From positions 1-21,091 of the forward strand of contig JANLOX010000143.1 in NCBI GenBank assembly GCA_031366795.1: DNA of 21,091 nucleotides, given 5' to 3'. Source of the DNA: Candidatus Eiseniibacteriota bacterium (GTDB taxonomy: Bacteria > Eisenbacteria > RBG-16-71-46). Under the pieces are notes generated by a model. It worked only from the letters and a program-made list of their open reading frames with translations, ran no database searches and was not told the origin of the DNA. The position numbers and the translations under genes were made by a program. Positions 6,394 through 21,091 of this stretch are shown piece by piece; positions within the stretch are counted from its first letter, which is position 1; each line of letters starts with the position of its first letter.

Positions 6394-9147
6394 TCAGCGG
6401 ATGGTGGCAATCCGCTTCACGACGCTGCGATCTAGTGCAGAAAGCCGGACGAAGTACAGCCCGACCGGAAGTGCTCGCCCTGCATCGGTCCCATCCCAGG
6501 CGACTAGGTAGCGGCCAGCGGGTTGGATCGCGTCCACCAGAGTCGCGACAACGCGGCCCGCGACATCCTCCACCCCGAGGCGTACACGGCCCGTGCGCGC
6601 AACGGCATACTGGACTTCCGTTCTCCCGCGGGTCGGATTGGGGGCAAGCCGCGTCAGACTGGTTTCGCTGACCGATGTGCGACCGGCCGCAATCACTGGA
6701 CCGAACATTTCGACGGAACCGTCGACAAGTCTTACCTCGAGCCGGTAATAGCAGGTTACTCCCGGCACCGCCGTCGGGTCGATCGCCGTGGTCACTAGTC
6801 CGTCGCTGCGCAGCTCGACATTGACAGGGGACCATGGCCCGGTTTCATTGCTGGCCCGCTCGAGTGCGGTTGAGGAAACCTCCGCCGGATTTCCGAAACT
6901 CCATCGAATTTCAAAATCATTTCCACGCTGATTCACCTCGAACCGGGCCAAGCTGGTGGCCGTGGTTGCGCCTGAACCGCTGATCAACACCGACACCGTA
7001 TTCGAACTCGAATTCGCCACGACAAGATCGCCCTTACCATCACCATTCAGGTCGCCCGCCGCCACCGAGACGGGGTCACCCCCGCTACCGTAGTCGATCC
7101 TGTCCCCGAAGTTGCCGAAGCCCTGGCCCAGCAGGACCGAGACCGTGTTGGCGTCCGCGTTCGTCACAGCCAAGTCAGGCTTCCTGTCATCGTTCAGGTC
7201 GCCAATCGCTACCGAAGTGGGCCCCGACCCTACGGCAAAATTCCGGCCCTCAAAACTGCCATCGCCATAGTTAAACAGCACCGACACATCGTTTGATCCG
7301 TTGTTCGTAACAGCCAGATCAAGCTTGCCATCACCATTTAGGTCGCCTATCGCAACCGAATGTGCGTTTTGCCCCGTCAGGTAGTCAGAGAACAGAATGA
7401 AGTTGCCACCACCGATGCCGCCCAGAACGGATACGGCGCCAGCGTAGTGGCTAGGCACCGCCAGATCAGGCACCCCGTCGCCGGTCAGATCACCGATGGC
7501 CAACGCGCCGAAAATGGCGCCCGTTGGGACGTCTGGCCTTGCGCTGAACCCCCCACTGCCGTTGCCGATCAACACGGCGACCGCATTCGACTTCCCGACT
7601 GCGAGGTCGAGCTTCCCGTCCCCGTTCAGGTCGCCAACGGCCACAAAATGCGGAGCACCTCCGGTCCCAAAGTCAGCCTTCGGGGCAAAACTTCCATCTC
7701 CATTGCCAAGCTGAACCGAGACGGAGCTTGAGGATTGGGTTGTGATCACGAGGTCGGCCTTGCCGTCACCGTTGAAATCGCCAATCGCCGCGGAATGGGG
7801 ACCGGTTCCCGTGCCGACGTCGGTCTTGACGGCGAAGCCTCCGCCGCCGTTCCCGAGCATCACCGAGATCGTGTTCGAGCCGTAGTTTGCCGTTGCGAGA
7901 TCGAGAATGCGATCGCCATTCAAATCTCCCAACGCAACGCAAACTGGCTGGTTCCCAGTGGCGTAGCCAGCGGCGCTTTGCCCAAAGCTCCCGTCGCCGT
8001 TGCCAAGCAACACAGAGACCGTCTTCGACCTGGCGTTCAGGGCCGCGATGTCGGGCCTATGGTCACCGTTGAGATCAACGATCGCTACCGGCTGCGGTGC
8101 GATTCCCGCACTGAACTCTGACTCCGACCCGAATGTCCCGTCGCCACGGCCTAGCAGTACCGAGATCTCATCGAGGGTGTTACCTACCGTGAGGTCTGCA
8201 TTGCCATCGCCGTTTACATCACCCACTACAACGGAATTGGGATAATATCCCGTGCCGAATAACGTCCCGGCTCCGAAACTCCCATCGCCAATTCCAAGCA
8301 GAACCGAAACACTGTTGGCGTAGAAGTTCGCCACCATAAGATCGGGCTTGCCGTCACGATTCATGTCCCCGAGAGCGACACTCGTAGACGAGACTCCTGT
8401 TGAACTGTTTGGCTTGAGGATGAATGCGCCGTTGCCCTCATTCAGGAACACAGCAACCCCGTAAGTCCGATCAAACGGGGCAGAAATCGTGGCCACCAGA
8501 TCAGGCTTGCCGTCACCATTCAAGTCTGTGATTGCCACGGATTCTGGAGAAGTGTTCAGGCCCGTACTCAGAGTGCTCCTATGCTGAAAACTTCCGTCCC
8601 CGCTTCCGAGCAACAGCGATAGCGTTTGCCCGGAGGCGTTCTGCGTCACGATATCCAGCTTGCCATCGCCGTTCATGTCACCGATTGCCACCGCTCTGGG
8701 GGCGTTGCCCGCATCGAAGTCCGTACTCGCGCCGAAGCTTCCGTCGCCGCGGCCGAGCAGGACCGACACGGTGGTCGAGTCGTTCGCCGTCACCAAGTCG
8801 GGCTTCCCATCGCCGTTCAGATCCCCGATTGCAACATGATTGGGATGGCGGCCTGTGACGAACTCGGTCGCGGCGCCGAACGTCCCGTCGCCTCTTCCAA
8901 GCAGCACCGTAACCGTGCTGGCGCTGGAGCTGGCCGTAACCCAGTCGGGCGCGCCATCACCGTTCAAGTCGCCGACCGCCGCGGAACTAGGAGACTTGCC
9001 CGCCGCCAAAGATAAGAATGGGGCCGCGAAAAGCGGGGCCGCGATTACTGGCGCAACGGATGCAGCAGTGCCGATGGCCAGCAGTAGTCCCAAGAAGATT
9101 CGGACACGGCAGAGTGTTCTGGCCTTCAAAATGGCGGCCTCGCGCAT
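6394..9147 (-). CDS. Secreted FG-GAP/VCBS repeat protein (14 repeats) with C-terminal FlgD-Ig/CTD-like domain
   Basis: Hydrophobic signal region IFLGLLLAIGTAASVAPVIA, 14 counted D-x-N-G-D-G-x-x-D type repeats, and CTD PNPTRG..DVAGRVVATL..WDG..GLYFVRL. Start is uncertain (9147 or 9171). Confidence 0.92.
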   Translation of the reverse strand: MREAAILKARTLCRVRIFLGLLLAIGTAASVAPVIAAPLFAAPFLSLAAGKSPSSAAVGDLNGDGAPDWVTASSSASTVTVLLGRGDGTFGAATEFVTGRHPNHVAIGDLNGDGKPDLVTANDSTTVSVLLGRGDGSFGASTDFDAGNAPRAVAIGDMNGDGKLDIVTQNASGQTLSLLLGSGDGSFQHRSTLSTGLNTSPESVAITDLNGDGKPDLVATISAPFDRTYGVAVFLNEGNGAFILKPNSSTGVSSTSVALGDMNRDGKPDLMVANFYANSVSVLLGIGDGSFGAGTLFGTGYYPNSVVVGDVNGDGNADLTVGNTLDEISVLLGRGDGTFGSESEFSAGIAPQPVAIVDLNGDHRPDIAALNARSKTVSVLLGNGDGSFGQSAAGYATGNQPVCVALGDLNGDRILDLATANYGSNTISVMLGNGGGGFAVKTDVGTGTGPHSAAIGDFNGDGKADLVITTQSSSSVSVQLGNGDGSFAPKADFGTGGAPHFVAVGDLNGDGKLDLAVGKSNAVAVLIGNGSGGFSARPDVPTGAIFGALAIGDLTGDGVPDLAVPSHYAGAVSVLGGIGGGNFILFSDYLTGQNAHSVAIGDLNGDGKLDLAVTNNGSNDVSVLFNYGDGSFEGRNFAVGSGPTSVAIGDLNDDRKPDLAVTNADANTVSVLLGQGFGNFGDRIDYGSGGDPVSVAAGDLNGDGKGDLVVANSSSNTVSVLISGSGATTATSLARFEVNQRGNDFEIRWSFGNPAEVSSTALERASNETGPWSPVNVELRSDGLVTTAIDPTAVPGVTCYYRLEVRLVDGSVEMFGPVIAAGRTSVSETSLTRLAPNPTRGRTEVQYAVARTGRVRLGVEDVAGRVVATLVDAIQPAGRYLVAWDGTDAGRALPVGLYFVRLSALDRSVVKRIATIR

Positions 9148-9173
9148 GGTGACAGTGCACCCATGAAACAAGT

Positions 9174-18355: not shown

Positions 18356-20734
18356 TCAACTACCCAGGCTGACGCGTAGCTGGCGGGTCTGGTCGGCGTC
18401 GCTACCCGTAGGCTGCGTCGCGAGATAGCGGTCCAGGTCGGACTTGGCATTGCTCAGGTCCCGGAAGCCCGGATCATAGACCCTCAGGTACCCAACGGAT
18501 CGCAGGCAGGCGGGATCGGGCGTGGGCTCGAGGCGCTCGAACTGCTCGGCGAAGGTGACCAATCGCGCTCGGCCATCCGCTCCCCCGCCGGTGGCCAGCG
18601 CCGCGGCCGAGGGCTGGCAAAGCAGCAACATCGCCCGCGTCGCGAACTCGGCCAGAACGTGACGCTCCGCCATCTCGAAGCTGGCGCGCGGCCACGGTCG
18701 GAAGTAGTCCGCAAGGTCGACGGCCTGCGCGATTTCCAACTCGCGCGCGATGCGCTGGTCGATCGCGAGCGTTGCGTCGAGCGCGTAGGCGCGCAGCCCC
18801 AAGCCCTCGGGGACCAGGCCATAGCCGAGAGTCCAGCTGTCTTCTTTGAAGCCGAGGAACATCACGGGGCGGCGCGGCACAATCCAATCGAGCCACAACA
18901 AATTACGCGTGCCGGGGAGCCCCGAGTACCGATCGTCGTCGCGCGGCGTGAGCCAGCCCTCGTGGAAGCCGGCGCGGGTTTGTTGGAAAGCGGTGGCGCT
19001 CGAGGGCATTGGGATGTACGACAACACATCAGCCGAATCCGCCAACGCATTGCTGTGCTCATCGAGTAGTGCGACCTTCCCTCCCGCACGCCGCGCGACC
19101 CAGCCATCGAACACGCGGCCATTGCGCAGCGTGACGCGCTCGGCGCCTCCGAGCGGCGGTAGCAGACCGGGATAACGCGCGCGGACCTGGCGCACGTACC
19201 AGTCGTAGGTCAGCAACTCCTGGTCGATGACCGCGACATCGGGACGCATATGCTCGACGCGCGTCAGGTACTCGAGCGCGTTATGGTAGAGGTCGCCGCG
19301 CACGAACACGACCCCGTTAGGTGGGACACTCGCGAGGATCCCGCGGCCCATGTTTTCTGCGAAGTGATTGTTGCGGGGACCCAGGGCGCGGGCAGTCATG
19401 ACCAGCGGCTGCGACGTGATCGCGGCGATGATGAGCAGCGCGGCGAGCCGCGGGCGTGGAATCTTCCCAGCGAGTGCCGCGCACCCCACTCCCGCGAGCA
19501 GGGCGACGCACACGTTGGGTAGCACGTAGAAGCGCTCGATCACGCTGCGCATGATCGGCAGCGCCGCGGGCAGCCCGGCCCGCATGAAGAACACCGCTTG
19601 CAGCAGCGTGAAGCCGCCGAGAGCGGCAGCCAGCGCGCGGTGACGCTGGATCACCACGATTGCGCCGATCGCTGCGAGCGCTGCGCCGCACCAGCCCACG
19701 GCCGCCGGCAACGATGCGAGATACAGCAGCCCGTGCGAGTCGCCGGATGACGCACCCACGCTGTGCGGCGCCAACTGGAACGTGCCGTAGTCCGCGCGCA
19801 GCAATTGGCGCAGGAGGCCGCGCAGGGTGCTGCCATCACCCCACACGAGGGCGGCCTTCGAGTGTGCGACCAGCGCGAGTTGCTTGAGCGGAAGCAGGCC
19901 GATGATGGCCGCGAGTGCAACGATGTTCCGCTCCACGCCACGCGGGCGCAACGCGGGGATCGCGAAACACACCGAGAGGATCGGCAGCATGAGCAGGACC
20001 AGCGTGTGATGCAGCGAAAGCAGCAGCGTGGCGAGCAGGCCGAGGACGGCCCACGGGGCACGGGAGCGCGGATTGGGCACGGGCACGTCAATGGGCGACG
20101 CGGGCTGCGATTCAGAGGTCGCGGCGCTCGCCGTGGACAGCGCGGCGGCCGATCGTCGCGGCGTGGCACCTGCGCGGCGCGCCCCACGCGTTCGCATTTC
20201 AGCGATCGAGAGCAGCGTCACGAATGCGAGCAGCGCCGCGGCGGCGAGAGCAGCATTCGGCGCGAACACTTCGGCGACGATCGCGTTCTTCCACAATGGC
20301 GCCGAGGCGGCGAGCATCCAGCCCCCCGCGAGACCTGCCAGCGCCGATCGCGTGAGCCGCCGCACCGCAAGCGCCGTGAGCCCCGCCGCGAGCGCCGCGA
20401 ACACCGCCGACATCACATTGAGCTGGAACGCCACGTTGCCCCACGCGAACAGTTCGATCCACGCGCGGCCCAGCCAGACGTACAGCGGATACCCCGGTGG
20501 GTGCGCCACGCCAAACGTTGCGGCGGCGGTGATCACCTCACCGCTATCCCCAGTGGGCAACGACGGCGCGACGGTCGCCAGGTAAAGCGCGAGCGCAGGG
20601 ATCGCGGCGGCGAGGAACGTGGGCCACGCGGAGTTCGCGAGGGCGCGTGTGGCGGTCGCGGCAGCGGGCGCGGGTCGAGTGCGCGCGGGCGAGTGCTGCG
20701 CGTTGGCGGCATCAGGAGTGTGCGCGGGCGACAC
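18356..20734 (-). CDS. DUF2723 / TMEM260-like GT-C membrane glycosyltransferase
   Basis: Signature GDSGEVITAAATFGVAHPPGYPLY, also AIVAEVF and SLHH, many TM helices, GDLYHNALEYL..RPDV and a TPR-like C-terminus. Confidence 0.9.
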   Translation of the reverse strand: MSPAHTPDAANAQHSPARTRPAPAAATATRALANSAWPTFLAAAIPALALYLATVAPSLPTGDSGEVITAAATFGVAHPPGYPLYVWLGRAWIELFAWGNVAFQLNVMSAVFAALAAGLTALAVRRLTRSALAGLAGGWMLAASAPLWKNAIVAEVFAPNAALAAAALLAFVTLLSIAEMRTRGARRAGATPRRSAAALSTASAATSESQPASPIDVPVPNPRSRAPWAVLGLLATLLLSLHHTLVLLMLPILSVCFAIPALRPRGVERNIVALAAIIGLLPLKQLALVAHSKAALVWGDGSTLRGLLRQLLRADYGTFQLAPHSVGASSGDSHGLLYLASLPAAVGWCGAALAAIGAIVVIQRHRALAAALGGFTLLQAVFFMRAGLPAALPIMRSVIERFYVLPNVCVALLAGVGCAALAGKIPRPRLAALLIIAAITSQPLVMTARALGPRNNHFAENMGRGILASVPPNGVVFVRGDLYHNALEYLTRVEHMRPDVAVIDQELLTYDWYVRQVRARYPGLLPPLGGAERVTLRNGRVFDGWVARRAGGKVALLDEHSNALADSADVLSYIPMPSSATAFQQTRAGFHEGWLTPRDDDRYSGLPGTRNLLWLDWIVPRRPVMFLGFKEDSWTLGYGLVPEGLGLRAYALDATLAIDQRIARELEIAQAVDLADYFRPWPRASFEMAERHVLAEFATRAMLLLCQPSAAALATGGGADGRARLVTFAEQFERLEPTPDPACLRSVGYLRVYDPGFRDLSNAKSDLDRYLATQPTGSDADQTRQLRVSLGS

Positions 20735-21091
20735 TGGTAGACCTTACCTGACACCGCAAACAGCGCGGCTGGCAGTAAGGCCCCCGCTCAAACCGTGCGT
20801 GCCGATTTCCAGCACACGGCTTACCGATGGTCTTCGCGGCGGAGCGTGCACGGTCCCATACCACTCGAGCGGCCGCTCGTCGACGCGGGCGTCACTCCGC
20901 GTCGTGTAGTTCGAGCGTCCTCGCGGAGTCGGGTGTCGTTTGGCTCCTGCCCATAGCTCGCGTCCAGGTTCTCGTGCTTTGTCCACATGCTCGCGCACAT
21001 GGGGGTGATTGGGAACGGTCTTGCCGTCCATGCCCTCGCACTTACCCTTTCTCCGAGCGTGACCAAAGCAGGGGCCCTTCCCTCCGGTCGT
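20733..21091 (-). mobile_element. Group II intron, 3' part (end of DIII, shortened DIV, DV, DVI); 5' end outside window
   Basis: DV AAGCCGTGTGCTGGAAATCGGCACGCACGGTTT (20822-20790) has the AGC triad, a GAAA-containing loop and the AC bulge. DVI GG-GGGCCTTAC...GTAAGGTCT-A-CC has a bulged A at 20738. A DIII-like GGAGGGAAGGGCCCCTGC lies at the window edge. The 3' boundary is uncertain by a few nt. Confidence 0.9.
20744..21031 (-). pseudogene. Internally deleted remnant of an intron-encoded RT/maturase
   Basis: 95 aa ORF starting in DIV. PNHP..DKARE..RELWAGAKRHP resembles IEP N-termini, and the tail RRPSVSRVLEIGTHGLSGG is the translation of DV. There is no YADD and no RT1-7 blocks. Confidence 0.7.

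Follow-up and report, generated by a model that had tools for sequence, protein, structure and literature searches.

A group II intron family that probably inserts after leaderless start codons and ends in a start codon of its own

How can a bacterial gene be read when its only usable start codon lies inside a group II intron? This question arises at one end of a 21,091-nucleotide stretch of DNA from Candidatus Eiseniibacteriota bacterium (assembly GCA_031366795.1, contig JANLOX010000143.1; hereafter the window), which is one entire contig of an assembly with a G+C content of 66% and whose minus strand terminates within such an intron (all window coordinates below refer to this strand). The first codon of the downstream host gene, a GTG at 20734-20732, had been predicted to lie across the 3′ splice site, which left two alternatives: either the real start is in a 5′ exon and splicing is required, or the intron acts as a 5′ leader that controls translation. 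Here, we argue that the intron was very probably inserted directly after the ATG of a leaderless gene and supplies a start codon as its own last three bases, and that the host protein is probably produced by termination and reinitiation on the unspliced RNA, with splicing being optional. The element is a decayed member of a start-codon-targeting family and no one-off regulatory device of the host gene.

The 3′ terminus of the intron

The window holds the 3′ 360 nt (20732-21091) of a mini-intron that has lost its reverse transcriptase (RT). It is 82-89% identical to full 825-nt copies in three related genomes (G001, G005, and G162; G000 denotes the genome of the window and of contigs C350, C184, and C103), the identity spanning exactly query positions 1-360. 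This part comprises the 3′ portion of domain III, a shortened domain IV, and domains V and VI, the limits of domains III and IV being set by comparison with the relatives; the 5′ ~465 nt fall past the contig end. Rfam model RF00029 matches at 20824-20731 (40.2 bits, cut-off 40) and, together with the predicted fold, reveals the hallmarks of a group II intron: a domain V (20790-20822) with the catalytic triad AGC at 20821-20819, and a domain VI (20736-20785, delimited by fold and family comparison, with a 2-bp basal stem) whose bulged branch A (20738) is seven bases away from where the intron ends. The GTG lies 4-6 nt past this A, as originally stated, and the other coordinates of that prediction hold as well. 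The surrounding motif, GGTAAGGTCTACCAGTGTCG, is located at 20748-20729. Seven nucleotides ahead of the GTG, the 3′ strand of domain VI carries a Shine-Dalgarno (SD)-like GGTAAGG (20742-20748), which overlaps the stop codon of the RT-remnant frame described below. Its duplex energy of −4.8 kcal/mol was computed with a generic anti-SD, as no 16S rRNA 3′ end was found in the assembly. In the predicted fold, TAAGG (20746-20742) pairs with CCTTA inside domain VI, in line with the earlier proposal that this SD-like motif stems from domain VI and is sequestered there.

Where exactly the intron ends was judged from its relatives. Close copies in the three related genomes share the window sequence as far as exactly 20732, past which unrelated genes follow. 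A domain V pattern found 99 loci in genome contigs, to which loci from relatives and metagenomes were added. Among the 88 distinct 3′ ends that passed a helix-pairing rule, 83 are ATG (66) or GTG (17) and five are other triplets; of the 28 loci that failed the rule, inspection by eye showed ACC-A-ATG or ACT-A-ATG in 24, and four were divergent or broken. A 250-codon open frame begins at the terminal triplet in 36 of 60 cases, compared with 1 and 11 for the other two frames. The triplet differs from the codon on the 5′ side of the intron in 5 of 31 complete elements and is therefore intron-encoded, and we rejected a target-site duplication of the codon on this ground. Loci L074, L097, L152, L123, and L156 end in AAT, ATC, or ACG and are possible escapees from this strategy; L123 is a 738-nt element whose 5′ flank lacks a start codon.

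Several features of the family place the boundary after the triplet. The exon base that follows the triplet is common to copies of one intron (89 of 110 concordant pairs, 28 expected), and concordance within lineages is not significant for exon positions +2 to +4. One domain I column, which we assign to exon-binding site 3 (EBS3), pairs with exon position +1 in 22 of 30 elements (26 when G-U pairs are counted), the next best column reaching 14 Watson-Crick pairs. The J2/3 segment reads CGA in all 26 elements in which its pattern was matched (of 40). By the established γ-γ′ pairing rule, this makes the γ base a C, which suits a G as the last intron base. Instead of the canonical AY, the family thus ends in RTG, with a γ C in 26 of 26 matched elements and EBS3 pairing with the base after RTG. 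A splice at AT|G with an exonic G and an intron end at 20731, where the Rfam alignment stops, were both rejected because of the EBS3 pairing and the lineage-specific exon +1. Taken together, the shared exon +1, the EBS3 pairing, the J2/3 segment, and the triplet that can differ from the 5′ codon indicate that the GTG is the intron's own end, wholly intronic instead of straddling the splice site, which we place between 20732 and 20731. This junction is bridged in DNA contigs of two studies, possibly including the source study itself. The opposite boundary, GUGYG, and domain I are seen in an 89% identical copy (L042; RF02003, 89 bits), the window copy being unassembled there; a GTGCG at 21041 was rejected as its 5′ end, given that it falls in domain IV of the relatives.

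Start codons of probably leaderless genes as insertion sites

All 40 canonical (GTGCGTC) 5′ junctions of the family lie directly after a start codon (37 ATG, 2 GTG, and 1 CTG). Of 19 further profile matches without a GTGCGTC start, 15 were viewed, and 14 of these follow ATG, GTG, or TTG, one being ambiguous. A TANNNT motif is present 6-8 nt upstream of the start codon in 29 of the 36 junctions with enough flank, compared with 696 of 105,529 ATGs (0.7%) of this genome. A −10 box at such a distance from the start codon is a known signature of leaderless genes, and the target genes of the family accordingly look leaderless in their sequence layout. The intron appears to read this layout by pairing. 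EBS1 covaries with the start codon plus one base (CATG with CATG; CATT or CATC with GATG; CACG with CGTG; CAGG with GCTG), with 122 of 124 positions paired against a permutation mean of 109 and none of 20,000 permutations as high. The back half of the −10 box is in turn the partner of EBS2, a four-base segment whose position 2 is paired in 19 of 20 cases against a mean of 9.7 (p = 5e-5). These p values are generous, since related introns are not independent samples.

The host gene in the window fits this picture. It is intact and encodes a 792-amino-acid TMEM260-like membrane protein (18356-20734) that matches PF11028, which we take to be the former DUF2723, at 74.6 bits (curated cut-off 24.2; E = 1e-20), in agreement with the family originally named; its role as an enzyme is a prediction. 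The next in-frame ATG, GTG, or TTG after the GTG is the TTG of codon 59, past the first hydrophobic stretch, with ACG, ATC, and CTG alone in between, so the GTG is, as had been noted, the sole canonical start ahead of the first membrane helix. An intron-less ortholog in G001, 81% identical, reads TACCTT, 7 nt, ATG TTG CCC GCG, where the window reads GTG TCG CCC GCG, and has no evident SD; the two genes differ by 0.114 nonsynonymous (dN) and 0.583 synonymous (dS) substitutions per site over 766 codons. Insertion directly after an ATG of the ortholog's type would be the simplest history of the window locus. The 5′ exon with an SD that had been anticipated is not what the family uses, its exon being a −10 box and an ATG in leaderless layout. 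The neutral intergenic insertion considered in the original prediction does not apply either, since the ortholog has an ATG in place of the GTG and lacks an evident SD, and since the splice site lies downstream of the codon. For the window copy, the 5′ exon is something we infer only from the relatives and the intron-less ortholog; a real start located directly before the intron would mean that splicing restores the start codon. Directly after the GTG, the gene carries a 39-nt direct-repeat unit (20693-20731; 16-nt repeats at a spacing of 39, repeat region 20731-20677), which belongs to a 24-residue N-terminal extension that the G001 ortholog lacks in the alignment.

Several other members of the family show variations on this arrangement. 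In the tandem copies L176 (junction near 1002, minus strand) and L102, the second intron starts right after the terminal ATG of the first, so that the intron's own end serves as a target; in L084, 1394 nt separate two domain V/VI ends. Members with noncanonical 5′ ends such as TCGCG, GTACG, GCGCA, or GTGCA (L073, L075, L083, L090, L091, L194, L087, L137, L147, L191, and L105) still sit directly after a start codon and a −10 box, and a first intron base other than G may reflect altered branching. Finally, a cultured, named strain also carries the family: L173, in a named actinomycete plasmid record, has a short duplicated 5′ end and is a possible experimental model.

Proposed translation through the intron

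We then considered what the intron does to translation. Upstream of the GTG and in its frame, an open reading frame (ORF; 20744-21091) runs from the contig edge to a single in-frame stop, TAA at 20746-20744, 9 nt before the GTG. It had been called an RT remnant in the frame of the host gene, and blastp bears this out: residues 2-62 match the N-terminal end, and residues 79-114 the C-terminal end, of family RT proteins (best E values, 2e-17 and 3e-8). The RT domain has been lost by an in-frame internal deletion, so that no intact RT/maturase with a YADD motif is present, only its two ends, and searches of the remnant gave no Pfam or NCBIfam match. Five complete 825-nt mini-introns, 81-88% identical, each keep 271 codons open from the host start onward, the single stop in this frame falling 9 nt ahead of the terminal codon, against 5-8 stops in each of the other frames. 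If their substitutions were placed at random, 8.1 new stops would be expected, the joint probability of none being 2e-4 in a simulation that ignores constraints from RNA structure. Synonymous changes in the kept frame show no excess (85, compared with 87 expected). It is thus the open frame, not the peptide sequence, that seems to be kept. The same register is retained by an 822-nt element (L088) and by an independent deletion on contig C350.

This second remnant in the genome (locus L195; G000:C350:6989-6627, minus strand), 363 nt long, keeps both ends of the family and has no domain V, and by its sequence it is unable to splice. It ends in an SD-like motif and an ATG, before an intact gene for a 214-amino-acid membrane protein. 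From the host ATG onward, the frame of the element stays open until a stop that precedes the terminal ATG by 9 nt. The empty site in G001 (L204) reads TATAGT, 6 nt, ATG GCC GAA, and the filled site TATAGT, 6 nt, ATG, the element ending in ATG, then GCC GAA; the encoded proteins are 95% identical. With splicing dead and a stop in the host frame, the host protein, if made, would be made from the last ATG of the element only. We regard this element as the clearest sign, at the level of sequence, that the terminal codon works.

These observations suggest the following mechanism. The window element would belong, as a non-autonomous copy with a deleted RT, to a group II family whose insertion point lies directly behind leaderless start codons, and the terminal ATG or GTG of the intron would let the host frame open again with a start codon in its native register. 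In the window copy, the 5′ exon would consist of a −10 box, a 6-8-nt spacer, and an ATG, as in the intron-less ortholog, with transcription beginning at or near the host AUG. A ribosome starting there would translate ~271 codons through the whole mini-intron and stop at the TAA inside domain VI; in terminating, it would melt the domain VI helix that hides the SD-like TAAGG and reinitiate at the GTG 9 nt on, so that the host protein would be produced from unspliced RNA. Splicing would need the RT protein in trans, would have a 5′ exon of only 3 nt on the leaderless transcript, and would serve mainly for mobility, remaining optional for the host. Of the two original alternatives, each thus stands in part. 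A start codon does lie directly before the intron in 40 of 40 canonical junctions, whereas splicing does not seem to be needed, given the intron's own terminal start codon and the intact gene behind the C350 remnant; and the notion of a controlling leader finds its support in the coupling to the remnant ORF, as judged from frame conservation.

A different view would be that splicing is required, with an RT acting in trans to yield a leaderless AUG-UCG mRNA and the terminal GTG being at most a weak back-up. The window copy has intact domains V and VI and an intact branch A; mini-introns with matching EBS1 and EBS3 occupy many unrelated sites, which implies that they have spliced and moved; and the spliced product would match the start of the ortholog. 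Moreover, an ORF-less intron of Clostridium tetani splices without an RT in its genome (PMC3919590). Against this, the C350 remnant is unable to splice and its gene is nevertheless intact, and a full family RT was not found in the assembly, which is 96% complete. The γ pairing would fix only the last G and not the A/G-T before it, and required splicing leaves the conserved frame of RT-less copies unexplained. We consider this alternative unlikely. As to further introns in this genome, contig C184 (minus strand) opens with the ten bases that close family members, the final ATG included, which suggests a third, unassembled copy. The genome also carries other group II introns (L001, L002, and L004-L010), several of them with class-C-like 3′ ends and two with partial RTs, and one RT-bearing intron on C103 matches RF02005.

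Reinitiation is also not the only way in which the GTG could be reached. Ribosomes might initiate afresh at the intron's SD-like motif and GTG, uncoupled from the remnant ORF, with the intron being a long 5′ leader whose folding sets or regulates expression. The SD-like motif with its 7-nt spacer and −4.8 kcal/mol would allow this, many members have an RT frame that stops ~110-118 nt upstream or is broken and still end in ATG, and a predicted alternative helix, in which the 3′ arm of domain VI pairs with host codons 6-12 (20769-20703) in competition with the branch helix, leaves TAAGG in a loop. Opening the start region is predicted, however, to cost about 18 kcal/mol in either fold, and nothing points to a ligand or signal. 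The alternative helix is unexceptional, being equaled by 13 of 108 other exons and by 457 of 5000 random 60-mers, so we rejected it as a local adaptation. Overall, fresh initiation strikes us as distinctly improbable.

A third possibility is that a recent insertion has largely silenced the gene, with the GTG unused and decay yet to come. The RNA data leave the host gene uncovered, the dN/dS of 0.2 averages over time preceding the insertion, and a distant paralog of the host gene is present in the genome. This reading sits badly with the in-frame terminal start that is retained family-wide, with the frame that is intact across 792 codons, and with the presence of the same insertion in the DNA of a second study, including strain differences within the intron; we hold it to be very unlikely.

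Coupled reinitiation, which we favor, must itself be weighed against a number of observations that speak against it, beside the generous p values, the structure-blind stop simulation, and the missing synonymous excess given above. The read-through frame is broken in 3 of 11 short elements (L043, L095, and L111), L078 is off-frame by a stop 17 nt upstream, and the host-codon frame reaches the RT motif in just 8 of 23 RT-bearing members. A stop at the 9-nt place occurs in 37 of 56 lineages, and an SD-like motif of −3.5 kcal/mol or better in just 36 of 55 (control, 20.5%), with none visible by eye in the actinobacterial type. Because of these broken frames and partial counts, coupling is, as far as sequence comparison goes, a trait of the branch that holds the window element and does not extend to the family in its entirety. 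With an assembly that is 96% complete and a C184 copy at a contig edge, there may also be a helper RT. With regard to the 5′ half of the window copy, blastn of a full relative against the genome matched only the window and the C350 remnant, scans of the contig ends of the assembly found none matching the missing half, DNA contigs from two runs break at ~21087, and a pattern fitting the filled and empty alleles of the junction returned 0 metagenome records. In two metatranscriptomes, coverage is confined to 20765-21090, stems mostly from diverged relatives, and leaves out the host gene, which is evidence neither way.

Combining all parts, a widespread, undescribed intron lineage would read the leaderless −10 box and start codon by pairing, splicing would be dispensable, and a leaderless mRNA would become a two-cistron mRNA with reinitiation at the intron's codon, so that remnants without an RT or even domain V would remain for good as translated 5′ leaders, with selection keeping them in frame. 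In this full form, we give the proposal an even chance.

Surroundings of the locus and relation to known group II introns

Among the neighboring genes, a DtxR-like iron-dependent repressor gene and feoB lie directly downstream of the host gene on the same strand (18224-15162), separated by a short, putatively feoA-like ORF. Farther along, at 6394-9171, the ORF list holds a 925-amino-acid ORF with many short GDxNGDG repeats and a C-terminal sorting-type tail. Upstream of the intron-less ortholog in G001, a divergent ORF (L012:1-1090, minus strand) presumably has an HNH-like C-terminal motif.

The layout described here would let the host gene be read even with an intron that is never removed. 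If true, bacterial group II introns would have a third way to survive, in addition to hiding in mobile DNA or following terminators: seizing the promoter and start codon of a gene and giving a start codon back. What the window locus contributes is the frame retained by copies without an RT, together with a sister element that is dead for splicing and has a clean empty-site ortholog. The strategy raises the questions of how a ribozyme functions with a 3-nt 5′ exon and a terminal G and whether splicing has to compete with ribosomes that translate the ribozyme. It also implies that a mobile RNA could turn leaderless genes into leadered, coupled genes, and that the sites at which the family inserts would point to leaderless transcription starts of uncultured bacteria. 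In addition, a non-disruptive targeting tool could be derived from an intron that leaves its host gene switched on.

How does this family compare with described ones? We found no description of leaderless targeting or of an intron-encoded terminal start in the literature searched, which did not include Michel et al. 2007, Simon et al. 2008, bioRxiv supplements, or theses, any of which could hold one; the available parts of PMC12584367, PMC3552965, PMC8919778, PMC4424553, PMC3919590, and PMC4244168 describe neither. The family RTs pass the cut-off of TIGR04416 (RT/maturase without endonuclease), and in a tree of 31 rows (11 near-duplicate or short rows left out) the 25 family RTs form a clade of their own with 96/95 support, apart from two g1, one g3, and the Rh.sp.I1 references; a named CL1 reference, g2, g4, g5, g6, and My.va.I1 lie outside the scope of this tree. 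The genome's own class-C-like RT falls outside the clade. Membership in class G (g1) was rejected, as the RTs separate (96/95) from Rh.js.I1 and Sr.me.I2, references that sit on long branches. The endonuclease-less g1 (class G), g3 (class F), and Rh.sp.I1 introns (PMC3552965) resemble the family in their endonuclease-less RT and their size of ~2 kb; the g1, g3, and Rh.sp.I1 references end in AT, AC, or AG and not in a start codon. My.va.I1, an unclassified intron of 1987 nt with a 501-amino-acid protein (Table S2 of PMC3552965), matches actinobacterial members such as L093 in size, the one property compared.

The closest described case is a clade of IIB1 (CL1) introns, which shares with the family an insertion within or next to start or stop codons. 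According to PMC12584367, which cites Michel et al. 2007, Avi.groEL and EcKTE56.groEL sit at initiation or termination codons, the groEL intron replaces the interrupted codon with an equivalent one, and how the clade finds these codons is unknown. Insertion at a start codon is likewise seen in all 40 canonical junctions of our family and in the empty-site ortholog of the C350 remnant. As portrayed there, the IIB1 clade is proteobacterial, resides in housekeeping genes, and carries an extra subdomain of 300-700 nt, and it is by this description that we set it apart. In contrast, the mini-introns of our family measure 825 nt in all, with domains I-III taking up ~500 nt and leaving, as far as domain I was modeled, no space for such a subdomain, and the RT extends ~450-500 amino acids past the ribozyme part. 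The target genes, which are unrelated to one another, have a −10 box, and the intron 3′ end supplies a whole codon.

A second parallel is offered by class C (IIC) introns, which insert after transcription terminators (PMC12584367 and PMC8919778). Like these, the family uses a short EBS1 on a recurring gene-expression signal, which opens many unrelated sites with little harm. The signal is a promoter and a start codon instead of a terminator hairpin, the 5′ flank showing a −10 box and a start codon and the covariation being of the EBS2 type that class C lacks; pairings of EBS2 and EBS3 are both present. Furthermore, our intron is placed so as to be transcribed and translated, and is not silent. 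The third parallel, C.te.I1 of Clostridium tetani, is ORF-less, and its downstream ORFs have annotated starts inside domains V/VI; a shifted 5′ site lets splicing join a long upstream ORF to alternative 3′ exons (PMC3919590). In our family, by contrast, the 5′ exon is a start codon only, and the terminal codon is a trait that characterizes a whole family of mobile elements.

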